Below are positions 9,429-50,429 of a stretch of DNA of 64,000 nucleotides, piece after piece. Made by a program: the position numbers and the translations under genes. Numbering within the stretch: position 1 is the first letter of the stretch; each line of letters opens with the position of its first letter. The stretch lies in sequence record OM386658.1, one strand, 5' to 3'. The stretch comes from Escherichia phage vB_EcoM_ESCO32. The notes under the pieces are model-generated. The model made no database searches and was not told the DNA's origin. It worked only from the letters and a program-made list of their open reading frames with translations.

Positions 9429-9526
9429 ATAAGACTAAAATCACTTAAAAAGAACCGCTAGAGTTTGAAGGAGAAAACCATGAGCGAAAAGAGAAATTTT
9501 CTCTAGCGATTCCATTTAAATAATCT

Positions 9527-9601
9527 TGGAGCGAGTAACAGGACTTGAACCTGCACCTGGAGGGTGGAAACCTCATATGCTACCATTAACACTATACCCG
9601 C
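9527..9601 (-). tRNA. tRNA-Gly(TCC)
   Basis: Acceptor GCGGGTA/TACTCGC, anticodon loop TTTCCAC, T-arm GCAGG-TTCAAGT-CCTGT, CCA. Confidence 0.55.
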
Positions 9602-9656
9602 TTAACAATATTACTCTAACATATTATTAGCCCCTTTGTCAAGAGGCTTTTAATAT

Positions 9657-9980
9657 TTATTTTAAAATAGTAGATGCACCACGTCTATTTAGATATGCAA
9701 CCGTAAAGCTCAAATCACCTATTTCTTCAGGTTCCCACTGACCTTCTAAGCCATAACAAGAACAATGATATGCGTGTACTTCATAAAACAAAGATGTTTT
9801 CATATCATAGAAATAAACGTGAGATTCGCCTTCATAATATGCACAATCATAAGTGGCAGAAAGAATTACAATGTTATCCTTATCTAACTCTACTTCATAA
9901 TATCTTTCAACATCTTCAATATCATCAAAACCATCGAAAACATTGATATTAAAATATTTCTCTAACTCTTTTTCTGTCAC
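9657..9980 (-). CDS. hypothetical protein (Cys/Tyr-rich)
   Basis: ORF track; N-terminus trimmed to GTG after AAAGGAG because longer ORF overlaps tRNA-Thr. Confidence 0.35.
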   Translation of the reverse strand: MTEKELEKYFNINVFDGFDDIEDVERYYEVELDKDNIVILSATYDCAYYEGESHVYFYDMKTSLFYEVHAYHCSCYGLEGQWEPEEIGDLSFTVAYLNRRGASTILK

Positions 9981-10002
9981 ATACACTCCTTTAGAGTTAA
10001 AT

Positions 10003-10076
10003 TGGTGCTCCCACAAGGACTCGAACCCTGATAAGTTGCTTACAAGGCAACCGTAATAGCCGTTATACGATAGGAG
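10003..10076 (-). tRNA. tRNA-Thr(TGT)
   Basis: Acceptor GCTCCTA/TGGGAGC, anticodon arm GTTGC-CTTGTAA-GCAAC, T-arm CAGGG-TTCGAGT-CCTTG, CCA. Confidence 0.6.
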
Positions 10077-10156
10077 CAAAATATTTGCTTGGTAGGATTT
10101 GATACCTACAATTCTAGAAAATTCTAGAGGTTTCTATTAACTCTACAAGCACTATT

Positions 10157-10241
10157 TGGCGATGGATCAAGGATTTGAACCTTGCTAGAACTTTCGTTCA
10201 CGGATTAACAGTCCGTCGCCCAACCACTAGGCCAATCCATC
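10157..10241 (-). tRNA. tRNA-Asn(GTT)-like with extra long variable arm (atypical)
   Basis: Anticodon arm ACGGA-CTGTTAA-TCCGT (Asn-like), then GAAC-GAAA-GTTC extra hairpin, T-arm CAAGG-TTCAAAT-CCTTG, acceptor GATGGAT/ATCCATC, CCA. Confidence 0.4.
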
Positions 10242-10248
10242 TTTAATT

Positions 10249-10335
10249 TGGTGCAGGTAGTTGGACTCGAACCAACGAAGCCCCGAAGGGCAGGAGATTT
10301 ACAGTCTCCAGCAATTGCCGCTATGCGATACCTAC
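10249..10335 (-). tRNA. tRNA-Tyr(GTA), type II
   Basis: Acceptor GTAGGTA/TACCTGC, anticodon arm GGAGA-CTGTAAA-TCTCC, long variable arm, T-arm GTTGG-TTCGAGT-CCAAC, CCA. Confidence 0.6.
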
Positions 10336-10340
10336 GTGTT

Positions 10341-10416
10341 TGGTACATCGTGAAGGATTCGAACCTTCGACCTTGGAGTTAAAAGCCCCTTGCTCTACCA
10401 ACTAAGCTAACGATGT
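10341..10416 (-). tRNA. tRNA-Lys(TTT)
   Basis: Acceptor ACATCGT/ACGATGT, D-arm GCTT-AGTTGGTA-GAGC, anticodon loop CTTTTAA, T-arm GAAGG-TTCGAAT-CCTTC, CCA. Confidence 0.65.
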
Positions 10417-10586
10417 ATAAATTATCTTTAAAATAGCCAGTGTTCGCACCACTGACTATGAGGTATCGGTAAGATGGTGGGGGCCATCTGCCGAAAGTCT
10501 ACTCTATTAAAGTAAGATGGTTGCAGCCATCCTTCCAAAAAGTTACACCAAGCAACTAAGAGTAACAAGCTACATTAAAGATAACT

Positions 10587-10672
10587 TGGCGGTAGATGTA
10601 GGACTTGAACCTACACGCCGTTTCCGACGACAGTTTAGCAAACTGTTGTGGCTACCATTTCACCAATCTACC
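10587..10672 (-). tRNA. tRNA-Ser(GCT), type II
   Basis: Acceptor GGTAGAT/ATCTACC, anticodon arm ACAGT-TTGCTAA-ACTGT, long variable arm, T-arm GTAGG-TTCAAGT-CCTAC, CCA. Confidence 0.6.
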
Positions 10673-10680
10673 GTTCTTAA

Positions 10681-10833
10681 TTATTCAAAACAACCGGAAT
10701 CTTTTTGTTCTGTTTTTACCATACGAATATTCTTACCATCTTCAGATTGTTGAAGATTAGAATACTCATAAACAACTTTATTATTTACAATCTTAACTCC
10801 GGTAACAACCTGTCCAATAGTTTTATAATTCAT
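10681..10833 (-). CDS. hypothetical small protein (about 50 aa)
   Basis: ORF track trimmed to internal ATG (MNYKTIGQ...) preceded by AGGAGC; sits between tRNA genes. Confidence 0.3.
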   Translation of the reverse strand: MNYKTIGQVVTGVKIVNNKVVYEYSNLQQSEDGKNIRMVKTEQKDSGCFE

Positions 10834-10851
10834 AAAGCTCCTAAGAGAATT

Positions 10852-10941
10852 TGGAGGAAGATAATGGAGTCGAACCATCACCGTATCGCTACAATGGGCC
10901 AGGGTTCAAACCTGGTTGCGCACCGCTGCGCCCTACCTTCC
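10852..10941 (-). tRNA. tRNA-Ser(TGA), type II
   Basis: Acceptor GGAAGGT/ATCTTCC, anticodon arm CCAGG-TTTGAAC-CCTGG, long variable arm, T-arm GATGG-TTCGACT-CCATT, CCA. Confidence 0.55.
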
Positions 10942-11004
10942 TGTTACCATACTTTAAATCTAACATAAAACTATCTTGCTTGTCAAGTAGTTTTTAAAAC
11001 TTTT

Positions 11005-11086
11005 TGGCCGGGGTGACAGGATTCGAACCTGCATACTCCAATTACTCGGTTAACGCCTGATTAGAAGTCAGGTGAGATACACCCCG
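11005..11086 (-). tRNA. tRNA-Arg(TCT)-like element with atypical architecture
   Basis: Acceptor CGGGGTG/CACCCCG, anticodon arm CCTGA-CTTCTAA-TCAGG, T-arm GCAGG-TTCGAAT-CCTGT, CCA; but only 5 nt where the D-arm should be and a 23-nt segment between anticodon and T arms. Confidence 0.35.
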
Positions 11087-11267
11087 TTTTCATAATGACT
11101 ATAACAAAAAACTAAGTAAATGTCAAGATATTTTTTACTAAAATTACTATTTAAATTGAAGCCTAGTTATGGAATCGAACCATATTTCGTATTTAGTTAG
11201 ACAAAGCGGTCTAACATATTTTTCAGGCTTTGATGGCCTCGGAATTACCAAATACCCTACTAGGTGT

Positions 11268-11353
11268 TGGTGCAAGTGGAGGGATTCGAACCCTCAAGCA
11301 TTTAAGCGTTGCGTTTTAAGCACAATGTGTATCACCAATTCCACCACACTTGC
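11268..11353 (-). tRNA. tRNA-Leu(TAA), type II
   Basis: Acceptor GCAAGTG/CACTTGC, anticodon arm TTGTG-CTTAAAA-CGCAA, long variable arm, T-arm GAGGG-TTCGAAT-CCCTC, CCA. Confidence 0.6.
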
Positions 11354-11384
11354 ATATAGGAGATGCATAGCACCTCCTTTTAAA

Positions 11385-11460
11385 TGGTGGTTCCCCAGGG
11401 TTACAATCCCTGCCCTCGACACTTATGAGGTGTGCGCTCTCGTCAGTGAGCTATGGAACC
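11385..11460 (-). tRNA. tRNA (CAT anticodon; Met or Ile2) with non-canonical T-loop
   Basis: Acceptor GGTTCCA/GGGAACC, D-arm GCTC-ACTGACGA-GAGC, anticodon loop CTCATAA, T-arm CAGGG-ATTGTAA-CCCTG (no TTC), CCA. Confidence 0.45.
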
Positions 11461-12205: not shown

Positions 12206-13939
12206 TTAGTCAACCTGGATGGTTCCCATAGTACGAAGAACCTCTACATCAACACGGTTGCGGATATCAGTAAATGTTTCATCACGTCCTTCTACTTGTG
12301 GTGTAATAACCGTACCATCCCTGAAGATAACTTTTAACTCATTGTCTTCATCTTGGATATCTTTAAAAGAAAGATTATCCACAAGAGAAAGTTTACCGTT
12401 TGTATCCTTAACAACCTTAATAAAACCTTTTGCAGAGCGTTTACCAGGATCAGTTTTAGGCTCCTTACTTACCAAAATTTCGTGTTCACCGATGATACTA
12501 CCTGTTGCTTTAACAGCAAAACCAAAAGTATCTCGTGTATTGAACTGATAAGTATAACTACCAACACCAAATACAATATTGGAAGCTGCAAAACCTTTCT
12601 TCTTCAGTCGGCGTAAGATCTCGTGTTCTCGTTCAACAGTAATAGAATCACCATAAATCATACCGATGTGCTGATCAAGAACCTTGTAGCCTTTTCGGTT
12701 GATAGTACCACCAAACACTTCCCAAAGGATTTGAATAGAACCTACTGCTTCACAATAAGGAATCTCATAAGTTTCATCAATACAATCAGCAACACTGCAA
12801 TCCTGAAGAACATTGTAATACTTATTAACATCAGCCAAATGAACTACTTCAGTGGCTGTAGCAATACCATTATTTAAAAGGTCTTCATAGTTATCAAAAG
12901 ATTCAACATTGTATCCTGCAACAACTTTAACCGGATCTCCTGAATCTGGACGAATAACAAGACGACCATTTCGTGACATAATGGACTCTTTCAATTCTAC
13001 CAGAATGCGAGTCAAGACAGCCCAGTAATCATAAGAATCTGCTACATATGAACAAAAACCTTCTGGAACAATTTCTTCAATATAGCGGCGAAGAAACTCT
13101 TTCTCTGCTACATAACGAAGCCCATCAACATCATCTTTAAGATGTGGGAAATGTTTCTTCAGATCTTCAACAATAGCTCCAATGTTAGTCGTTGCTACTG
13201 AATGTTCTGTTGCCGGAATAGAACCTGCAACAAATTGATCATAATCAATACCATAGTAATCATGCACAGTTTCAATAGCCAGAATATTATCTGTTCCTGT
13301 GAAAGATGCCAAATGAGCGATACCACTCTTATAACCATCTTCGATATTGCTTAAGCCACGTAGACTAAAGTCATGACACTGGAAATTAACGTGATCAATG
13401 TTATCACACGTTGCCATCGCATACGCCATAGCGATACGCTTATACTGAAAAGCTGCTGTGGCATTAGTCATTGTCTTCCAAGTTTCATCTGACAAGAGTG
13501 TTTCCACATAGTTAGTTAACCAAAAGAATTTTTCTAAAGTGTTATGCACAGTAAACACAGGAACACCAATAGGACACAAAACACCTTCTGGCAGAGATCG
13601 AACTTCTAGCGGAAGATAACCTAAGTCGTGCAATTCTCCCCAACATTCAGCAGAAGGAGCAGAAGCACCTAATGCATTTTTAGACATACGGTAAAATTTA
13701 TTTACTGCTGCACTACGAGACATTTTAAAGAAGCTATCCCACATAGTTACAAGAGCATCAGTAACTGCTCGACGAATACCTAAAACAATTACACCACGTG
13801 CTTCACGATCTGCATAGTGTGCAAAGTTTTTATCATTACGAGGAGTTAAATTAGAGAAAATGAGTTTTGTATTTTGGTTGTACATCTGCTTGTGACCAGG
13901 CTTATACCAATCAGTAGCAAAAGGTGCAAAAATATTCAT
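12206..13939 (-). CDS. nicotinamide phosphoribosyltransferase-like enzyme (NAMPT family; Namat-type of phage NAD+ reconstitution pathway)
   Basis: 577 aa, NAMPT-like length and composition; immediately downstream of PRPP-synthetase-like gene, the arrangement described for phage NARP1. Confidence 0.75.
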   Translation of the reverse strand: MNIFAPFATDWYKPGHKQMYNQNTKLIFSNLTPRNDKNFAHYADREARGVIVLGIRRAVTDALVTMWDSFFKMSRSAAVNKFYRMSKNALGASAPSAECWGELHDLGYLPLEVRSLPEGVLCPIGVPVFTVHNTLEKFFWLTNYVETLLSDETWKTMTNATAAFQYKRIAMAYAMATCDNIDHVNFQCHDFSLRGLSNIEDGYKSGIAHLASFTGTDNILAIETVHDYYGIDYDQFVAGSIPATEHSVATTNIGAIVEDLKKHFPHLKDDVDGLRYVAEKEFLRRYIEEIVPEGFCSYVADSYDYWAVLTRILVELKESIMSRNGRLVIRPDSGDPVKVVAGYNVESFDNYEDLLNNGIATATEVVHLADVNKYYNVLQDCSVADCIDETYEIPYCEAVGSIQILWEVFGGTINRKGYKVLDQHIGMIYGDSITVEREHEILRRLKKKGFAASNIVFGVGSYTYQFNTRDTFGFAVKATGSIIGEHEILVSKEPKTDPGKRSAKGFIKVVKDTNGKLSLVDNLSFKDIQDEDNELKVIFRDGTVITPQVEGRDETFTDIRNRVDVEVLRTMGTIQVD

Positions 13940-14010: not shown

Positions 14011-14904
14011 TTAAAAATTCCACACGTATGGAGATACAATTTGTTGTTGCAAATCTGACTGATTCTTAACAAGAACACCGGAATCTTCTTGGATGTTATC
14101 TTCCCACACATTAAGAGAATGAATGCAGTCAAAGTGCTCACTTAACTCTTTAAGACCTTTAGAAAAGATACCGTGTGTAACATATAACTCAATCTTACCT
14201 GCGTTACGAGCACGTAGCACTTTAGCCAATTCAATAAAAGTTCTACCGCCGTCACAGATATCATCTACGATCATCAGGTTACGCTTATTGAAATCCTGTA
14301 CAGAAATGTCTGTACGAACAATAGCACCTGTTGCAGTATCTCTAACCTTCTCTGCACAGAACACATCTAAAGACATTTTCTTAGATAATTTAAATATTTT
14401 CTTAAGAGCACCACCATCAGGACTAACAAGAGCAAAATTCTCCATACGTAACTTCCACTTTAAAGTTTCGTAAGCAATCTCTTCTTGAGGTATTACACAG
14501 AGTCTGTCAAACACTGCTGGAGTAACATCACTATGTGGATCAGCAACGATAACACGTGAGAAATTTAATGAATTAATTATAGAAGCAAATGCTTTAACTC
14601 CGAATGCTTCCCCAGGTTCACACACTCTGTCTTGTCGTGCATATGGCACATACAACATGAGCAAATCAACACAATATGGTTTATGATATAGCATATTGTC
14701 CAATGCATTCTTAGTCATAACCAAAGTCATCAAGTCTTTAGCAGATCTTACTTCTAAAGAGAGTAAGATTCTGTCTGTAGCATGATTGAAACCTGATAGA
14801 TTCGTGTCTAGTTGAACATGTTGTTCTCCACCAGAGAACGTAAAGACTTTAACGTCTACATCAGTAACATAACAGTCAACACCATGTAGAATACTAACTT
14901 TCAT
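14011..14904 (-). CDS. ribose-phosphate pyrophosphokinase-like enzyme (Prs family; Adps-type of phage NAD+ reconstitution pathway)
   Basis: 297 aa; Prs-like motifs VSPDGGALKK and MIVDDICDGGRT (PRPP-binding loop); adjacent to NAMPT-like gene. Confidence 0.75.
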   Translation of the reverse strand: MKVSILHGVDCYVTDVDVKVFTFSGGEQHVQLDTNLSGFNHATDRILLSLEVRSAKDLMTLVMTKNALDNMLYHKPYCVDLLMLYVPYARQDRVCEPGEAFGVKAFASIINSLNFSRVIVADPHSDVTPAVFDRLCVIPQEEIAYETLKWKLRMENFALVSPDGGALKKIFKLSKKMSLDVFCAEKVRDTATGAIVRTDISVQDFNKRNLMIVDDICDGGRTFIELAKVLRARNAGKIELYVTHGIFSKGLKELSEHFDCIHSLNVWEDNIQEDSGVLVKNQSDLQQQIVSPYVWNF

Positions 14905-32491: not shown

Positions 32492-32827
32492 ATGCCTACA
32501 TTAGTTGTATTACCTGGAGCAACACCACAAAGACGCTGGGGAAATTATACACTGGTAGATAGTAAAGATTTTACATTCGATTGGTGTTGTCATTATATTG
32601 CAGGTTTTCAATTTTCCAGTGTTGAAATATGGGCTTCCAATGATCCCATAGCTACCTGGTATGCTTTAACCAGAGCAAGGTATGAGGGAGAGGTTACTAT
32701 ACTACTCACAAAGAGTGTATGGGACGCATTAGAGAAGGCTTACCTAGATGATGGTATGGAGAGAGAACACATTGATACAATAAAAGCAATGTGTGATATT
32801 GTGGAGGATTTAAATGGCAGCAATTAA
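32492..32827 (+). CDS. hypothetical protein between nrdA and nrdB
   Basis: Internal ATG after AAGGAGG. Confidence 0.35.
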   Translation: MPTLVVLPGATPQRRWGNYTLVDSKDFTFDWCCHYIAGFQFSSVEIWASNDPIATWYALTRARYEGEVTILLTKSVWDALEKAYLDDGMEREHIDTIKAMCDIVEDLNGSN

Positions 32828-33899
32828 CTTATACAACGACACTTACAAAGAAGGTTTCTACCCTGTATTTTTGGGAGAACAGTTAGGTATTTTTGATTCT
32901 ATTAATGTAACATACCCAGAAATGCATCGTCTGTACAAACTACAAAAACAGCAAGATTGGGATGAAAACGAAGTAAACTTAGATCAGACACGAAAAGATT
33001 TCGTAGCTTGTTCTAAAAGCAACTATGATGTTATGATCAAAAACCTATCTTTCCAATGGGAAAATGATTCACTTGCTAAATCAATCATCACTTTGTTTGC
33101 ACCATTTTTAAGCAACAACGAAGCATGTGCAATGATGATGAAGCAATCAGAAATGGAAGTTTTACACGCTTTGACATATTCTGAAATTATTCGTCAGTGT
33201 ATCCCTAATCCAAATGAAGTTATCGATCAGATTATGGAGAACGAAAGAATCTTCCAGAGGATGGGTATAGTTGAAGAGATAATGAGTGATCTGGCAGAGG
33301 CAGGACATAAATATGCTCTAGGTCTGATTGAGAAGGATGATAACCTTCGTCTACTGATTCTGAAAGGAATGATTGCACTTATCGGTCTGGAAGGTATTCA
33401 GTTCATCTCCTCTTTTGCTGCAACATTTGCCTTAGCAGAGCAGCAATTGTTTGTAGGTGCAGCTAAACTCATTCAAAAAATTATGTTGGATGAACTATTG
33501 CACGTTAAAATGGATTATGCTATTATTGATGCACTGCTGAAAGATCCTGTCTGGAGAAAAGTATACGAAGATAATATCGACGTTCTGACAGAAATTCTTG
33601 ACACAGTAGTTGGACAAGAGGAAGATTGGTGTGACTATCTGTTTAGTGAAGGAAGGATTATCGTTGGCGGTAACGCAGAGTTGTTCAAACTTTGGGTTTA
33701 CTTCAATGCCGCGCCTATCTATCGCAGACTGAAAATGAAACACAAATTCCGTGCACCTAAGAAAAGTCCACTGCCTTGGATGGATGTTTGGTTAAATCCA
33801 GATCAAATTCAAGCAGCAGCACAAGAGATCCAAATTACAGCTTACAAACTGAATTCAGCAAATAAAGATGTAAGTGATGACGAGGAGTTAGACTTTTAA
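32814..33899 (+). CDS. nrdB: ribonucleotide reductase class Ia beta subunit
   Basis: 361 aa; follows nrdA; EVLHALTYSEIIRQ-type di-iron ligand helix. Confidence 0.8.
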   Translation: MAAINLYNDTYKEGFYPVFLGEQLGIFDSINVTYPEMHRLYKLQKQQDWDENEVNLDQTRKDFVACSKSNYDVMIKNLSFQWENDSLAKSIITLFAPFLSNNEACAMMMKQSEMEVLHALTYSEIIRQCIPNPNEVIDQIMENERIFQRMGIVEEIMSDLAEAGHKYALGLIEKDDNLRLLILKGMIALIGLEGIQFISSFAATFALAEQQLFVGAAKLIQKIMLDELLHVKMDYAIIDALLKDPVWRKVYEDNIDVLTEILDTVVGQEEDWCDYLFSEGRIIVGGNAELFKLWVYFNAAPIYRRLKMKHKFRAPKKSPLPWMDVWLNPDQIQAAAQEIQITAYKLNSANKDVSDDEELDF

Positions 33900-34295: not shown

Positions 34296-34442
34296 TGGAT
34301 GATGTAAGTATTTGTCCTATCTGCGGGGGTACTGGGAATTTTATTGTTAGTATGGAACAATTTATTCCTTGTTGGAATTGTAACGGTTTAGGTTTCGTTC
34401 ATACAGAAGAAAAAGAAGAGGAGGAAGATAGTGGGAGTTGAT
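34296..34442 (+). CDS. small zinc-ribbon protein (about 48 aa)
   Basis: Manual translation MDDVSICPICGGTG...CWNCNGLG; below ORF-track cut-off. Confidence 0.3.
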
Positions 34443-34757
34443 ATTGCATGGCGTATGTTACAGGGTGCACCTTTTAATAAATGGGAAGAGGCTGTAGGAG
34501 AAGATCCTAAAATTGAAGAAGAATTTGATGGAGATTTGAACTGGTTCTTACAAGAAGGTCTTGATTTAAGTCGTATCTCTCCTTTCTATGATGCTGATGA
34601 ATCTTATTGCATATATGGCATTTATTTAGAAGGTGGCGAAGGAAGTATAGCTGTAGATCTTGAGCAACTAAATAAGAATGCAAAAGAAGCCTATGCACAA
34701 CTTCTTGAAAAATATAACATTGAAACGGAAACTATTATTTCTCAACACGTTTGGTAA
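34431..34757 (+). CDS. hypothetical acidic protein
   Basis: ORF track. Confidence 0.3.
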   Translation: MGVDIAWRMLQGAPFNKWEEAVGEDPKIEEEFDGDLNWFLQEGLDLSRISPFYDADESYCIYGIYLEGGEGSIAVDLEQLNKNAKEAYAQLLEKYNIETETIISQHVW

Positions 34758-34770
34758 GGAGGATAGTAGA

Positions 34771-34968
34771 ATGATGCTAGATCAACTGATCAATGCTCCT
34801 CGCGTAACAGTAAGTCCAAAAACATTTGCATCACTTTTAGAAGATGCTAAAGAGGTTTATAACTTTACTGAAGAAGAGCTTCCTGTTCCTGTTGAAAAAG
34901 GTTCCAGATGGTTGTTTTATGAAGGTATTATTTTTACTGAAGGGAATAATTGGAAGGAGACTAAATGA
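34771..34968 (+). CDS. hypothetical protein
   Basis: Internal ATG after AAGGAGG. Confidence 0.3.
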   Translation: MMLDQLINAPRVTVSPKTFASLLEDAKEVYNFTEEELPVPVEKGSRWLFYEGIIFTEGNNWKETK

Positions 34969-35954
34969 AATACTTAGTAACAGGTGGTTTAGGCTTTATT
35001 GGAAGTGCGGTAGTTCGTTTCCTGGCTAAAAATACTAAGAACGATATTTACGTTATAGATAAATGGGGTTACGCTTCAGATCCTAGAAATTTAGCAGAAA
35101 CACCTAATGTAAAGTTTTGTCGTGTTGACTTGACAAATGCGCAGGTAACTGCTAAGATTGTGGCAGATGTTAATCCAGATTATATAATGCATCTTGCAGC
35201 AGAAAGTCACGTAGATAATTCAATAGCATCACCGAGTGTTTTTATAAATTCAAATATTGTTGGGACATTTAATCTTCTAGAAGCTGTTCGTTTAATGGGA
35301 GATAAATCAAATCTTAAAATGTTCCATCATATTTCAACAGATGAAGTGTATGGTGATCTGGAAGAAGGGGATTATCCGTTTACAGAACAGAATCCTTATA
35401 AGCCAAGTAGTCCATATGCTGCATCTAAGGCAGCAAGCGATCATTTGGTAAGAGCGTGGCATCGTACTTATGGTATTCCGACAGTTATAACAAATTGTTC
35501 AAATAATTTTGGAGCATATCATCATCCAGAAAAACTAATACCTAAAACGATAACAAATATCTTGATGCATAAACCAATCCCTGTTTATGGCAATGGTCTT
35601 CAAGTAAGAGATTGGTTATACGTTGACGATCACGCAGAAGCATTACACCTAGTAGTAACTAAAGGCAAATCTGGAGAAACATATAATATTGGGAGCAGAA
35701 ACCCTAGAACTAATATTGATGTAATCTATATGATTTGTGATTATATGGATGCGGTGTATCCATCTGAAACAGATGCTTGTAGCCTCATTGAGATGGTTAC
35801 AGATAGACCTGGACATGATTTAAGATATGAAGTGAATCCTTATAAGATTGAAAAGGAATTAGGGTGGAAAGCTAAAGGCACATTTGAAGAAAAACTTTAT
35901 TCAACCATTGATTGGTATGTAGATAACAAAGAGTGGTGGGAAAATAAAGTTTAA
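34965..35954 (+). CDS. rmlB: dTDP-glucose 4,6-dehydratase
   Basis: SDR fold: [10 protein letters not shown] Rossmann motif, YAASK catalytic YxxxK, typical length 329 aa. Confidence 0.85.
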
Positions 35955-35962
35955 GGAGGAGT

Positions 35963-36832
35963 ATGAAAGGTATTATCTTAGCAGGTGGTAGTGGAACAAG
36001 ACTTTACCCAGTTACTAAAGGGGTTAGTAAACAACTATTACCAATTTATGATAAGCCTATGATTTATTATCCGCTCTCTGTCCTAATGCTTTCTGGAATT
36101 AGGGAAATACTAATAATTACAACACCAGAAGATCAAATTAATTTTGTAAATCTTCTAGGTGATGGTTCTTCTTTTGGTATTTCCCTACAGTATGCAATAC
36201 AGGATAGCCCAAAAGGTTTAGCAGAAGCGTTTATTATTGGTGAGAACTTTATTGGTGAAGATTCTGTAGCACTTGTGCTAGGTGATAATTTATTCTTTGG
36301 TCAGAGTTTTGGTAGCATTTTAGATTCTGCTAAAGAACATATTGAAAAGAATGGTGGAGCTAATATTTTTGGGTATCACGTAAATGATCCTGAAAGATTT
36401 GGTGTTGTTGAGTTTGATTCTGAAGGTACAGTGGTGAGTATTGAAGAAAAACCAAAAGCACCAAAAAGCAACTACGCAATCACAGGCTTGTACTTTTACG
36501 ATAATTCTGTTATACAGAAAGCTAAGAGCGTTAAACCTTCTGCTAGAGGGGAGTTAGAGATTACAGATATAAATGAGATGTACTGGAAAGAAAAGACTTT
36601 ACGTGTCTGTAAACTAGGAAGAGGTTTCACTTGGCTGGATACAGGAACACATGAAAGTCTTATGGAAGCATCTCAATTTGTTCATGCAATAGAAAAGCAA
36701 CAAGGTATGAAGGTTGCATGCCTGGAAGAGATTGCTTTTAAAAATGAATGGATTACTTTAGACTCTGTAAAAAGTTCTGGAGAGGTTTTAAGTAAAACAG
36801 ACTACGGTAAGTATTTACTTAAATTAAAATAA
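35963..36832 (+). CDS. rmlA: glucose-1-phosphate thymidylyltransferase
   Basis: N-terminal [14 protein letters not shown] nucleotidyltransferase signature; 289 aa. Confidence 0.85.
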
Positions 36833-36844
36833 AGGGGGAATTAA

Positions 36845-37399
36845 ATGATTCAAGCAACAAAAATCGAAGATTTGTTGATCATTCAACCTGACGTTTACGG
36901 AGATGAACGTGGCTTTTTCTTAGAAAGTTTTAATCAGGCTTTATATGATCAATACATAGGTAAACAAAACTTTGTCCAAGATAACCATTCACGTTCTATT
37001 CGAGGAGTTCTACGTGGGCTTCATTTTCAAAAGAAAAACCCACAAGGGAAGTTAGTACGTTGTGTTCGTGGTGAAGTTTATGATGTTGCTGTAGATATTA
37101 GGGTTGGTAGTCCAACATTTGGAGAATGGGTAGGTGTTCTCTTATCTGAAAAGAATAAAACACAATTTTGGATTCCTCCTGGTTTCGCTCATGGCTTTGT
37201 TGTGATTAGTGACATTGCTGATTTTGAATATAAATGTACAGAATATTACGATCCGACTTCAGAGTGTAGTCTTGCGTGGAATGATCCAGATATCAATATT
37301 GATTGGGGTTTTGATTTAATCTTTAATGATATTAATTTTAAACCTATCTTGTCACAAAAAGATCAGGAAGCCAAAACACTAAAGGAGATCATATTTTGA
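36845..37399 (+). CDS. rmlC: dTDP-4-dehydrorhamnose 3,5-epimerase
   Basis: 184 aa cupin; DERGFFLE and HFQK motifs typical of RmlC. Confidence 0.8.
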   Translation: MIQATKIEDLLIIQPDVYGDERGFFLESFNQALYDQYIGKQNFVQDNHSRSIRGVLRGLHFQKKNPQGKLVRCVRGEVYDVAVDIRVGSPTFGEWVGVLLSEKNKTQFWIPPGFAHGFVVISDIADFEYKCTEYYDPTSECSLAWNDPDINIDWGFDLIFNDINFKPILSQKDQEAKTLKEIIF

Positions 37400-38226
37400 C
37401 AAAATTTTTAATCTTTGGTTCAAAAGGTCAATTAGGACAATCTTTGGCAAAAGTTGCACCAGAAGATGTTATTTTGATTGAAGCAAGTGATATAGACATT
37501 ACCAACTTTAAAGATGTTATGAATAGTCTTGTACAGCACGTGCCTGATGTTGTTGTGAATTGTGCGGCTTACACGGCAGTAGATAAAGCTGAAGAAGATG
37601 TTAACACCTGTATAAATGTTAATGCATACGGTGCAACAAACATTGCCAAAGCATGTAATGATTTACTGATACAGTTTGTACATATTTCAACAGACTATGT
37701 TTTTGATGGGCATGTTGCTGGCACAGAAGATAGTAAAACAAACCCCTTGAACACCTACGGTTACAGTAAACAATTAGGTGAAACTTTAGTACAAACAGTT
37801 TGTCCTACAGCACTTACTATCAGAACAGCTTCTGTTTATAGTGAATTTGGACATAACTTTTTGAAAACTATGTTGGAACGCTACAACGGTGGTCAAAAAG
37901 AATTTAATGTAGTATGTGATCATTTGTCGTGTCCTACTTATGCACCTGATCTTGCAGAAACAATTTTTAAACTTGTAAAAGATGGTGTAAATAGTAAAAT
38001 TGTACACTATGCAGGTGCAGATTATATTTCTTGGTATGATTTTGCACGAAAGATATTTCTTGTTATAGATTTATCTGTTACAGTTAATCCTGTATCTGCT
38101 TCAACCTATAATTCCAAAGCAGTCAGACCAGCAACATCTTATTTAAAAACAGATCCTACTTTAAATCCGCGAAGTGTTGATAGCGGTATTGTAAGAACTT
38201 TAACTATACTTTTAAACAAGGAGTGA
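37396..38226 (+). CDS. rmlD: dTDP-4-dehydrorhamnose reductase
   Basis: 276 aa SDR; GSKGQLG N-terminus, YGYSK catalytic motif; completes RmlB-A-C-D set. Confidence 0.75.
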   Translation: MTKFLIFGSKGQLGQSLAKVAPEDVILIEASDIDITNFKDVMNSLVQHVPDVVVNCAAYTAVDKAEEDVNTCINVNAYGATNIAKACNDLLIQFVHISTDYVFDGHVAGTEDSKTNPLNTYGYSKQLGETLVQTVCPTALTIRTASVYSEFGHNFLKTMLERYNGGQKEFNVVCDHLSCPTYAPDLAETIFKLVKDGVNSKIVHYAGADYISWYDFARKIFLVIDLSVTVNPVSASTYNSKAVRPATSYLKTDPTLNPRSVDSGIVRTLTILLNKE

Positions 38227-39151: not shown

Positions 39152-39176
39152 CAAAGGGGCGAAAGCCCCTTTTATA
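39152..39176 (+). terminator. rho-independent terminator, GGGGC-GAAA-GCCCC hairpin plus T-tract
   Basis: Second copy of the repeated tetraloop hairpin. Confidence 0.6.
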
Positions 39177-41162: not shown

Positions 41163-41591
41163 ATGTTACCAGTACCTGTAATCTTTGTAGAAAAAGCCTA
41201 CTACTCTTTAGAACAAAATTGTAAAAGAGCTAAAAATTTTATTGAAAGTTTAGCAGAACAGCGTTACACTGTATCTAAAAAGGGATGGTTCAGAACTTCA
41301 CAATATTTAGTCAACCCTTTCGGAGAAGTTCGTGTGTTGTATGGCAACACAGAAAATATCTTAGAAAGAATGTTAGAACTAGACAGGATCTCCTCCTGTG
41401 ATTATCAACTGTTGAAATTTTACGATGTGTCAGAAAACGTTAAAAACTTTCTTGATGACTTATGTAAACGAAAAACAGAAGAAGATACAATACCAGTATC
41501 TATGGAAGAATTAACGTTCTTAAGAGATATTATGGTTTTTGAAGAAAACCCTGAAATCACAAAAGAGGAGATTTTAAGTAGTGGCAAATAA
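41163..41591 (+). CDS. hypothetical protein
   Basis: ORF track; RBS AGGAGG. Confidence 0.35.
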   Translation: MLPVPVIFVEKAYYSLEQNCKRAKNFIESLAEQRYTVSKKGWFRTSQYLVNPFGEVRVLYGNTENILERMLELDRISSCDYQLLKFYDVSENVKNFLDDLCKRKTEEDTIPVSMEELTFLRDIMVFEENPEITKEEILSSGK

Positions 41592-42090
41592 GTATGATCG
41601 TCCACCAACTGATTACTATCCTACTCCACAAAAATGTATAAATGCATTATTTAGTGTAATAGATTTTAATAACCTTAAAGAAGAAGGTTTTATTTTTGCA
41701 GAACCGTGTAAAGGCGCTGCTGCTGCAATTTATCAACATTTTCCAGAAGGATCAGAATATTGTGAGTTAGAAGAAGGGAAGGATTATTTTAACCACGAAT
41801 GGCATACTAAGCCGGATATTATAATCACAAATCCACCATTCAGACTTGCACTTGAGTTCTTGCAAAAGAGCTTAAAAGAAGCAGACGTTTGCATATACTT
41901 GTTGCGTCTTGGGTTCCTAGAGTCTATTAAACGAAGGGAATTCCATAAACAGAATCCACCAACAAATTTGATTGTTCTTTCTGAACGACCATCTTTTGTT
42001 GCAGGTGGTACTGATAAGACAGCATATGCTTGGTACGTCTACGACCCAAAAAACAGGCTGGGTTTAACTCAACCTTTCTATTTTGTTTAA
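41581..42090 (+). CDS. small amino-methyltransferase (DNA N6-adenine or N4-cytosine MTase, putative)
   Basis: DYYPTP near N-terminus, EPCKGAAAA (SAM-binding-like), IITNPPF catalytic (D/N)PP(Y/F) motif. Confidence 0.55.
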   Translation: MANKYDRPPTDYYPTPQKCINALFSVIDFNNLKEEGFIFAEPCKGAAAAIYQHFPEGSEYCELEEGKDYFNHEWHTKPDIIITNPPFRLALEFLQKSLKEADVCIYLLRLGFLESIKRREFHKQNPPTNLIVLSERPSFVAGGTDKTAYAWYVYDPKNRLGLTQPFYFV

Positions 42091-47297: not shown

Positions 47298-48287
47298 ATG
47301 AAAGTTTTAAGTCTTTTTGATGGTATGTCAGGAGGAATGCTTGCGCTAAAAAGTGCAGGTATTGAAGTAGATACATATTATGCTTCAGAATTAGACAAAT
47401 TCGCCATAGCTGAAAGCCAAGCAAATTTTCCAGATATTATTCAGTTAGGTGATGTTACAAAATGGAGAGAATGGGATATTCCGTGGGGAGAAATTGATCT
47501 TTTGTTAGGTGGTAGTCCGTGTCAAGGCTTCTCTTCTTCTGGTAAGGGTTTGAACTTTCAAGATCCGCGATCTAAGCTATTCTTCGAATATGTTGAGATT
47601 CTTGAACATATTAAAAAGTTTAACCCTAATGTTAAGTTCATGCTTGAAAACGTTAAGATGAAAGTGGAGTGGGAAAACGTGATCACAAGTTACTTAGGTG
47701 TTGATCCCGTATTCATTAACTCCGCAGATTTCACGGCACAAAATAGACAACGTTTATACTGGTGCAACTGGGAAATAAAACCTTGGGATATTACCAATGA
47801 AGTGTTGCAAGATATCATTGAAGATGATAGTATCGTAGACAGAGATAAGGCTTATTGCATAGATGCAAATTATGCCAAAGGTGGTAATATAGAACAGTAT
47901 TTTGAAAAGAGTCGCAGACAACTGGTTTTTTATCCGGCAGCAATATATGGGCGTAGAATTAATGAAAATGGTAAACGTAGTACATCTAAAACTGATCGTT
48001 TGGTACATTGTTTGGAAGTTCAGGACAGTGAAAAAACTCGTTGCCTCACGACTGTGCCTAAAGACGTACTATTAGCCTACATTCCACCTGGAAGATATCT
48101 AGATGCCTTTGAAAAATTGAGTGAAGGCGTACATTATAGAAAGTTAACGGTTAAAGAGTGTTGCCGCTTGCAAGGTGTGCCAGATGATTACTTTAAAGTG
48201 AGTAGTAACACACAAGCATATAAGATGTTAGGCAATGGTTGGACTATACCTGTCATTGCACATATTCTTAAATGTATGGAGGAATAA
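47298..48287 (+). CDS. DNA cytosine-5 methyltransferase
   Basis: Motif I LFDGMSGG, motif IV GGSPCQGFS (catalytic Cys), motif VI ENV. Confidence 0.8.
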   Translation: MKVLSLFDGMSGGMLALKSAGIEVDTYYASELDKFAIAESQANFPDIIQLGDVTKWREWDIPWGEIDLLLGGSPCQGFSSSGKGLNFQDPRSKLFFEYVEILEHIKKFNPNVKFMLENVKMKVEWENVITSYLGVDPVFINSADFTAQNRQRLYWCNWEIKPWDITNEVLQDIIEDDSIVDRDKAYCIDANYAKGGNIEQYFEKSRRQLVFYPAAIYGRRINENGKRSTSKTDRLVHCLEVQDSEKTRCLTTVPKDVLLAYIPPGRYLDAFEKLSEGVHYRKLTVKECCRLQGVPDDYFKVSSNTQAYKMLGNGWTIPVIAHILKCMEE

Positions 48288-49616: not shown

Positions 49617-50429
49617 ATGCGAAGAGTAATTTTTGTTAGTGGCGCAGGTTTAAGTGCAGACAGTGGGATTCGAACGTTCCGAACAGACACAGATAGTGGT
49701 CGTGCCTTATGGGAAGAATATGACTTAGAAGAGGTCTGCGATATTGGAGCTTTCCAAGCAGGTTATCGTGTGAGAACATCTCCAGATCTTCCAGTGGTCG
49801 GTGGTGTAGACGAGAACGGTATGGACTTGTATGCCAAAACACACGAATTTTATAACAAAAGACGTGTTGAGCTTAAAGATGTACAACCTAATGCTGCACA
49901 TATTCAAATAGCAAGGTGGTTTAAGGAATATCCTAACCAAGTAGTAAACTTGACAACAAACGTTGATGACCTACTAGAGCGAGCAGGTGTAGACAGGGAT
50001 TCTGTTATTCACGTGCACGGATATCTTCCTGAAGTAGTTTACCGTATGCATCCTGGAGATTACAAAACACTGGTAGACATTGGTTACAATAGTATAAACA
50101 TAGATGATTATAACTGGGTGAAGCCTAATGTTGTATTTTTTGGTGAGGCTGCACCTTTGTATGCAGATATGGCTCACTTGTTTGATACTTTGACCATGCA
50201 AGATTTGGTTGTTGTAGTAGGATGTTCAAACCAAGTTATCAATTTTAATTGGGAATTATTCCCTGCACTTAATATGGGTACAAAAATGATCGTTGTTAAC
50301 CCAGGAATTAATTACGAAGAAACTCTTCTTTACGAAGATAGAGGAGTCTTTGTTTATAGAGAAAAGGCAGCAGATGCTTTTAGCAATCCTGCTTTCATAA
50401 AAATGATAGAAGATCATTTGACTAAGTAA
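49617..50429 (+). CDS. SIR2-family (sirtuin-like) NAD+-dependent enzyme lacking zinc-ribbon module
   Basis: GAGLSADSGIRTFR NAD-binding signature, QPNAAHIQIA, TTNVDDLL, catalytic HVHG, VVFFGE, VVVGCS; no CxxC pairs. Confidence 0.7.
   Translation: MRRVIFVSGAGLSADSGIRTFRTDTDSGRALWEEYDLEEVCDIGAFQAGYRVRTSPDLPVVGGVDENGMDLYAKTHEFYNKRRVELKDVQPNAAHIQIARWFKEYPNQVVNLTTNVDDLLERAGVDRDSVIHVHGYLPEVVYRMHPGDYKTLVDIGYNSINIDDYNWVKPNVVFFGEAAPLYADMAHLFDTLTMQDLVVVVGCSNQVINFNWELFPALNMGTKMIVVNPGINYEETLLYEDRGVFVYREKAADAFSNPAFIKMIEDHLTK

Follow-up and report, generated by a model that had tools for sequence, protein, structure and literature searches.

The dTDP-L-rhamnose gene cluster of the phi92-like phage vB_EcoM_ESCO32, an old and constrained pathway that may supply the phage's own glycosyltransferases

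Phi92-like phages (genus Justusliebigvirus) and other members of the Stephanstirmvirinae carry, next to nucleotide metabolism genes, a cluster annotated as the rml pathway, which makes dTDP-L-rhamnose. Olsen et al. (2020) called this cluster "peculiar" and published it together with the idea that it serves DNA glycosylation (PMC7552041). Maffei et al. (2021) described the phi92-like phages as "exceptionally susceptible" to restriction-modification "despite a putative dTDP glycosylation machinery" (PMC8594841), and a 2024 paper contains the same idea and the same contradiction with restriction sensitivity (PMC10844046). In the literature searched we found no experimental test of the function of the cluster. 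Here we analyse it in a 64,000-nucleotide stretch of Escherichia phage vB_EcoM_ESCO32 (sequence record OM386658.1), referred to below in its full length as the window, on which an earlier note had been made from the sequence alone. The source phage is a Justusliebigvirus, and its rml cluster is 98.4-99.1% identical at the nucleotide level to those of more than 50 Justusliebigvirus phages in GenBank (phi92, EmilieFrey, arall, muut and others), nearly all of which annotate these genes as the rml pathway. The clusters of phi92 (gp067-064), phAPEC8 and other Stephanstirmvirinae contain the same genes with no difference of substance; the window adds a further isolate to a genus already described, and its rml cluster was already known. 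The rmlBACD/rfbBDAC operons of bacterial O-antigen and capsule loci encode enzymes of these four families, whose catalytic residues are likewise the same, but the phage genes differ in lying in an nrd-grx module without any adjacent transferase, flippase or polymerase. What we add is a narrowing of the likely role to a non-DNA acceptor, a pathway core formed by RmlC and RmlD, and a four-gene glycosyltransferase cassette as the obvious partner.

The cluster consists of four contiguous plus-strand open reading frames (ORFs) at 34965-38226. Each predicted product was scored against the curated NCBIfam equivalog cut-off for the corresponding enzyme, with Pfam as a second check, and all four exceeded their cut-offs:

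34965..35954, plus strand: rmlB, dTDP-glucose 4,6-dehydratase, 329 residues; TIGR01181, 442 bits against a cut-off of 365
35963..36832, plus strand: rmlA, glucose-1-phosphate thymidylyltransferase, 289 residues; TIGR01207 (RfbA), 472 bits against 361
36845..37399, plus strand: rmlC, dTDP-4-dehydrorhamnose 3,5-epimerase, 184 residues; TIGR01221, 260 bits against 156
37396..38226, plus strand: rmlD, dTDP-4-dehydrorhamnose reductase, 276 residues, TTG start; TIGR01214, 250 bits against 224

The Pfam matches of the four products agreed with these assignments. Aligned with its E. coli counterpart RfbB, RmlB, a short-chain dehydrogenase/reductase (SDR), is 55% identical and keeps the motifs GxxGxxG, STDEVYG and YAASK (YxxxK); RmlA is 64% identical to RfbA and retains the nucleotide-binding loop GGSGTRL(YP); and RmlC, a cupin, is 63% identical to RfbC, its residues His60, Lys69, Tyr129 and Asp173 being the same in all six sequences of an alignment (A4). 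RmlD is the most divergent, only 33% identical to RfbD and with a small margin above the TIGR01214 cut-off, but it conserves STDYVF and YGYSK, and its matches in the PDB are all dTDP-4-dehydrorhamnose reductases (best 3sc6, E 2e-43). This assignment is at the family level, at which the L-rhamno and 6-deoxy-L-talo products are not told apart. By every sequence criterion the cluster looks functional, and the dTDP-L-rhamnose pathway is very probably active. The earlier note had proposed a complete RmlB-A-C-D pathway with its hallmark motifs, flanked upstream by NrdA/NrdB and ThyX and downstream by glutaredoxin; its coordinates were exact, the quoted motifs are present along with the catalytic residues, and the flanking genes are as it described.

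Sequence divergence within and between genera indicates that the cluster is under strong purifying selection. Compared with EmilieFrey, the four genes show 33 synonymous and 7 non-synonymous differences, with ratios of non-synonymous to synonymous rates (dN/dS) of 0.04-0.14; between genera synonymous sites are saturated, with Rml proteins still 40-77% identical. Synonymous divergence from EmilieFrey (L001, 20001-23262) is uneven along the cluster, ~0.08 in rmlB and rmlA and ~0.01 in rmlC and rmlD, which suggests a recombination breakpoint inside it.

The genomic context points to an old insertion between nrdB and grx. The genes around the insertion site are the following:

32814..33899, plus strand: nrdB, left flank of the insertion site, beta subunit of class I ribonucleotide reductase by annotation of relatives
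34431..34757, plus strand: conserved ORF of 108 residues at the left junction of the rml genes, with no match in Pfam or NCBIfam
34771..34968, plus strand: small ORF with a 4-nucleotide overlap with the start of rmlB; its counterpart at the same position in EmilieFrey is bas61_0215, a hypothetical protein of 65 residues
38223..38489, plus strand: glutaredoxin gene (grx), right flank, its start overlapping the stop of rmlD; PF00462, 45 bits

The glutaredoxin ORF also matched TIGR02181 with 53 bits, under the cut-off of that family, and the small ORF, for which the ORF list of the window gives a longer reading frame (34678-34968), had no family match in NCBIfam or Pfam. All four rml genes are preceded by a Shine-Dalgarno sequence (ggaaggag in front of rmlB), and the gaps along the series small ORF-rmlB-rmlA-rmlC-rmlD-grx measure -4, 8, 12, -4 and -4 nucleotides. 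Gaps of -4 to 12 nucleotides between the rml genes are consistent with one transcription unit, partly translationally coupled. A consensus scan for promoters and terminators gave no enrichment over shuffled sequence. Further downstream, between the lysin and phoH genes, there is a perfect 8-bp GC-rich hairpin at 39153-39172 (AAAGGGGC...GCCCCTTT), which scores as terminator-like solely on the minus strand.

The same gene order, thyX-nrdA-nrdB-small ORFs-rmlBACD-grx-small ORF-lysin-phoH, recurs in ukendt, a Phapecoctavirus, as well as in 05F01, a divergent Klebsiella phage, with Rml proteins 54-71% and 40-70% identical, respectively, to those of the window. The adjacency of rmlD and grx is kept in 05F01, ukendt and FKP3, and an ORF of ~110 residues directly precedes the first rml gene, whichever that is, in 05F01, ukendt, FKP3 and the contigs L097 and L099. 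In rV5, a member of the sister subfamily Vequintavirinae, grx begins 3 nucleotides after nrdB, an empty site. A tblastn search of the whole rV5 genome found none of the four Rml proteins, whereas NrdB (51% identity), the capsid protein (43%) and Grx (39%) were detected.

Some relatives have kept only part of the pathway. Among Klebsiella-phage relatives whose RmlC proteins are 76-78% identical, two IMG/VR contigs (L097 and L098) have B-A-C-D, a third one (L099, 8569-11385) has A-C-D, and FKP3 (L091, 4442-6391) has C-D. The loss of rmlB in L099 and that of rmlB and rmlA in FKP3 are clean deletions with the same left junction after the ORF of ~110 residues, and rmlC-rmlD was kept in every relative that lost rmlB or both genes. 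Enterobacterales also form dTDP-4-keto-6-deoxyglucose through RffH and RffG. The steps catalysed by RmlA and RmlB thus appear dispensable, since the host can supply them, whereas the constant retention of rmlC-rmlD points to selection either for dTDP-L-rhamnose as such or for the removal of the keto compound from which it is made. These comparisons argue that the indispensable core of the pathway is RmlC-RmlD, the committed steps to L-rhamnose.

The cluster is not a recent acquisition from a host. None of 5426 complete E. coli genomes matched at least 80% of it, the best ones showing 65-67.5% nucleotide identity over about half of its length, and the best cellular RmlA found among 185,579 species genomes was 69% identical (Raoultella, Snodgrassella), with matches of 60-69% spread across many phyla. 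The claim of the earlier note that recent host capture can be set aside therefore holds, as no host-identical genes were found, but the two arguments on which it had been based do not. AT-richness is non-discriminating because the E. coli rfb genes compared have a GC content of 0.29-0.37, against 0.34-0.35 in the phage rml genes. Likewise, of all complete arrangements in the 80 nearest bacterial loci, the supposedly unusual gene order B-A-C-D is the most frequent one, and it occurs there also in the Enterobacterales Dickeya and Tatumella.

The earlier note had recognised no glycosyltransferase in the window, and we found none either, whether among the window ORFs scanned or among the genes annotated in the syntenic part of EmilieFrey. 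The genome-wide search that it had proposed, carried out on close relatives, yielded four glycosyltransferase-like genes; the identity of the sugar donor, by contrast, could not be read from their sequences. These genes (bas61_0046-0049 in EmilieFrey) lie beside the primase/helicase genes, ~70 kb from the rml genes, in every one of the ~55 close relatives, among them arall, the nearest. The cassette occurs in synteny in phAPEC8 (gp071-074), and its taxonomic distribution matches that of RmlC. It is composed of two GT-B/GT4-like paralogues, one GT-A/GT2-like protein and one further glycosyltransferase-like protein; bas61_0049 is supported by PHROG only, with no match in Pfam. The predicted model of GT0046 (pLDDT 94) is GT-B/GT4-like. 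That of GT0048 (pLDDT 88), a family with invariant FDDD and YGxED motifs, has a GT-A fold whose matches include the dTDP-rhamnose transferase RmlT and dTDP-bound SpsA. When 78 EmilieFrey proteins of at least ~105 residues that had no other annotation were scanned together against Pfam (families listed at E below ~7e-4), no further glycosyltransferase appeared among the best 25 of the 39 families detected.

rV5 lacks all eight rml and transferase genes, though its NrdB, major capsid protein and Grx are readily found. It has a "putative alpha-1,3-fucosyltransferase" of its own (gp010; L176, 5703-6602), so that some glycosyltransferase exists in both sister subfamilies. Two divergent Stephanstirmvirinae, Citrobacter phage Tr1 (L007) and Klebsiella phage KP13-26 (L008), contain a lone GT0048 homologue with 35-39% identity, located within a block of small early-type ORFs and not in a four-gene cassette; KP13-26 has in addition one GT0046-like gene elsewhere in its genome. 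Four GenBank records of "Campylobacter phage" (MG065639, MG065645, MG065656 and MG065689; host C. jejuni) contain both the cassette and an rml cluster 98.9% identical to that of the coliphages, and are probably mislabelled or derived from contaminating phi92-like phages. Among unrelated IMG/VR viruses we found no informative adjacency of rmlC with GT0048- or GT0046-like genes, the 10-kb flanks available being shorter than the 70-kb distance; in distant IMG/VR contigs RmlC belongs to different clusters, flanked by SDR enzymes.

These comparisons establish what the pathway is, that it is intact and old and that selection constrains it, and likewise that the transferases exist and to which fold class they belong; from them we infer the likely use of the sugar. 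The cluster is an old insertion between nrdB and grx that would go back to the ancestor of the Stephanstirmvirinae, and it would be expressed together with the nucleotide metabolism genes. Its products would convert glucose-1-phosphate and dTTP into dTDP-glucose, then into dTDP-4-keto-6-deoxyglucose, dTDP-4-keto-rhamnose and dTDP-L-rhamnose, so that activated L-rhamnose would be assured during infection irrespective of what the host itself produces. This donor would be used by the phage's own transferases, encoded near the primase/helicase genes, to build a rhamnose-containing glycan on a cytoplasmic acceptor other than DNA, with phage structural proteins as the leading candidate. That the pathway feeds the phage transferases seems to us somewhat better than an even bet, both the use of dTDP-rhamnose and the acceptor being conjectured. 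The full sequence of events, from rhamnose supply through these transferases to a non-DNA acceptor, is the best overall explanation that we can offer, and we propose it tentatively.

A protein of any kind, from the phage or from the host, is a possible but not a probable acceptor. Virion glycosylation is known in mycobacteriophages of Clusters F, O and C (Che8, Corndog and Myrna; Freeman et al. 2023, as cited in PMC12363180 and PMC11256854); according to these two papers, the Che8 cassette glycosylates capsid and tail-tube proteins, and Che8 gp110 is one of the transferases that capsid glycosylation reportedly requires (PMC12363180). Corndog gp38 is another essential transferase of this type, and the O-glycans of the Che8 type are placed on the C-termini of capsid and tail-tube subunits. 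Outside enterobacterial myoviruses, the only distant relatives of GT0048 that we detected are GT-A domains of Cluster F mycobacteriophages, exemplified by Llij gp96 (66 records with 25-27% identity; profile E 6.5e-21), with which it has the signature FxFDDDCYP + GxGxE in common. These domains belong to the Cluster F glycosyltransferase cassette, in which Llij gp96 is encoded two genes away from an orthologue of Che8 gp110 (84.5% identity). GT0048 itself was considered as a Che8-type virion glycosyltransferase and rejected, as direct comparison matched only Llij gp96 and not Che8 gp108-110; its tie to virion glycosylation is thus one of neighbourhood and not of orthology. The phage genes resemble the Che8-type systems in forming a cassette of several cytoplasmic glycosyltransferases and differ from them in the Gram-negative hosts, in the dedicated nucleotide-sugar pathway that accompanies them, and in being known here from genes alone. 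A second parallel exists in giant viruses (UDP-L-rhamnose in Mimivirus, GDP-sugars in chloroviruses; PMC9614988), where both the activated 6-deoxyhexose and the transferases are viral, without dependence on the host, and the latter act on capsid or fibril proteins. However, giant viruses infect eukaryotes and follow a UDP- or GDP-linked two-enzyme route with unrelated enzymes, and the transferases of PBCV-1 and Mimivirus were only generic GT-A fold matches. The narrower proposal that the pathway and the four transferases place a rhamnose-containing glycan on virion proteins, or on some other protein of the phage or its host, we hold to be rather unlikely.

Several observations weigh against the explanation that we prefer. 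The transferase cassette is deduced from relatives, as it lies outside the window, and it is separated from the rml cluster by ~70 kb. The presence of both in the same phages may reflect a single gain event, with the two clusters being core genes of one subfamily. Donor specificity is not readable from the sequences or folds of the transferases, and GT4-like enzymes usually use UDP-, GDP- or ADP-sugars. As for the virion, bas61_0046-0049 had no match to Che8 gp108-110 (blastp E > 0.4; profile scores < 7 bits), and Llij gp96 is a variable neighbour in Llij-type phages with 25% identity to GT0048. Obvious tails for glycosylation are missing from the capsid, decoration and tube proteins, and their C-termini have no motif in common. 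We found no report of glycosylated phi92 virions in the literature searched, which did not cover the phi92 structural papers. Among the structural proteins compared only the sheath has a Ser-rich C-terminus, and comparison of these C-termini with those of Llij gave anecdotal results only.

The phage transferases might instead remodel the host envelope, modifying the lipopolysaccharide (LPS) core, the O-antigen or another surface glycan at the cytoplasmic face of the membrane. The purpose would be the masking of receptors, either against superinfecting phages or to prevent the progeny from sticking to debris. The structural neighbours of GT0046 and GT0048 are compatible with such a role, since most of them are enzymes of lipid-linked or cell-wall glycans (PglA, PglH, PimA, WaaG, TarP, TarS and RmlT). 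Nevertheless, the best 25 of the 39 Pfam families did not include any flippase, polymerase, initiating transferase or Gtr-type membrane protein, and neither the Pfam scans nor the annotations of the whole EmilieFrey genome contained GtrA, GtrB, GtrX or an O-acetyltransferase. Moreover, these phages are strictly lytic, and little envelope turnover takes place in one infection; in this they differ from the temperate phages with seroconverting Gtr/Oac systems, the phage studied here being a virulent myovirus. We consider envelope remodelling unlikely, although it survives better than the alternatives that follow.

DNA was the first option listed by the earlier note and turned out to be the least supported one. 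Rhamnose would in this case be put on a hydroxymethylated base of the phage DNA, maybe in a site-specific way downstream of the C5-cytosine methyltransferase of the phage. T4 glycosylates its DNA with glucose and RB69 with arabinose. As in these and in TET-associated systems, the phage transferases are encoded among DNA metabolism and replication genes and show weak similarity to TAGT and T4 enzymes. Yet the similarities are generic or below threshold: the TAGT profile scored 23.3 and 19.3 bits, under its cut-off of 27.5, over the N-terminal 60 residues that form the generic nucleotide-binding part, and T4 AGT and BGT came 18th and 33rd among the fold matches of GT0046, after many GT4 glycan enzymes. 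The machinery for making the acceptor was not found either. The sole thymidylate synthase is ThyX (PF02511), no ThyA-type dCMP/dUMP hydroxymethylase was found, and the best 25 of the 39 Pfam families of the unannotated EmilieFrey proteins included no TET/JBP or 2-oxoglutarate (2OG)-Fe(II) oxygenase. In addition, phages Bas60-62 are "exceptionally susceptible" to six restriction systems of types I, II and III (PMC8594841), and we found no report of rhamnosylated phage DNA in the literature searched. With ThyX only, no hydroxymethylase or TET/JBP enzyme detected and the published restriction sensitivity, DNA is the least likely acceptor, and its glycosylation is improbable; sparse, site-specific modification would be compatible with restriction sensitivity. 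Several DNA methyltransferases are encoded by these phages, reported as restriction-sensitive all the same: a Dcm-like C5 enzyme verified with Pfam, a Dam-like one and a further, putative N6 one (loci at 41581-42090 and 47298-48287 of the window and at 35999-36730 of L002).

The pathway might also act without any sugar transfer, by metabolic diversion. RmlC and RmlD would drain dTDP-4-keto-6-deoxyglucose, the precursor of the Fuc4NAc of the enterobacterial common antigen (ECA) and of many O-antigen sugars, and accumulated dTDP-rhamnose, an established inhibitor of RmlA, would block the host enzyme by feedback and halt host glycan synthesis. The universal retention of rmlC-rmlD alone fits a pathway that starts from an intermediate made by the host. 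Nonetheless, a pure drain needs neither rmlA nor rmlB, which are kept under strong purifying selection in most lineages and consume dTTP that phage replication needs, and the four transferases would be left unexplained. The version of this idea in which ECA is the phage receptor is further weakened because the follow-up of the BASEL collection now assigns the receptor of these phages to the NGR glycan rather than to ECA. Diversion thus appears as a doubtful explanation, on a par with DNA glycosylation. Finally, the cluster might be a hitch-hiking moron, carried neutrally and of no use to the phage; this is very improbable, since the lack of a reported phenotype and the loss of rmlB or of rmlB and rmlA in some relatives, which would suit it, are contradicted by the selection data (dN/dS of 0.04-0.14, intact catalytic residues and the same locus kept across lineages with saturated synonymous sites).

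Other features of these genomes deserve mention in their own right. In the window, a nicotinamide/nicotinate phosphoribosyltransferase-family protein (12206-13939, minus strand) adjoins a protein similar to phosphoribosyl pyrophosphate (PRPP) synthetase (14011-14904, minus strand), a pair that resembles phage NAD+ salvage, for which a role against NAD-depleting defences has been proposed. Positions 49617-50429 encode a Sir2-family protein, and the region 8713-11460 (minus strand) contains 15 tRNA genes, one more than annotated in EmilieFrey, the extra one being a tRNA-Met (11385-11460). Outside the window, positions 50-62 kb of the EmilieFrey record (L003) encode together TerC, TelA, vWA-TerF-like, ComF-like phosphoribosyltransferase, HAD and macro-domain proteins, a group resembling a phage-carried Ter-type stress or nucleoside-metabolite system, and NADAR, CapR and cREC_REC domains occur among the "hypothetical" proteins.

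The rml cluster raises the question of what has led an entire subfamily of large virulent phages of enterobacteria, many of them under development for therapy and biocontrol, to maintain its own source of activated rhamnose over such a long time. If the acceptor were the host envelope, this would be a lytic phage that masks receptors in a new way. If it were a virion protein, phage virion glycosylation would extend beyond the actinobacteriophages; phages of Gram-negative bacteria would thereby gain their first example of virion or protein glycosylation, which would also be the first to come with a donor pathway encoded by the phage. Such a glycan may affect the immune clearance of therapeutic phages and may matter for the antibody recognition of broad-host-range therapeutic candidates.

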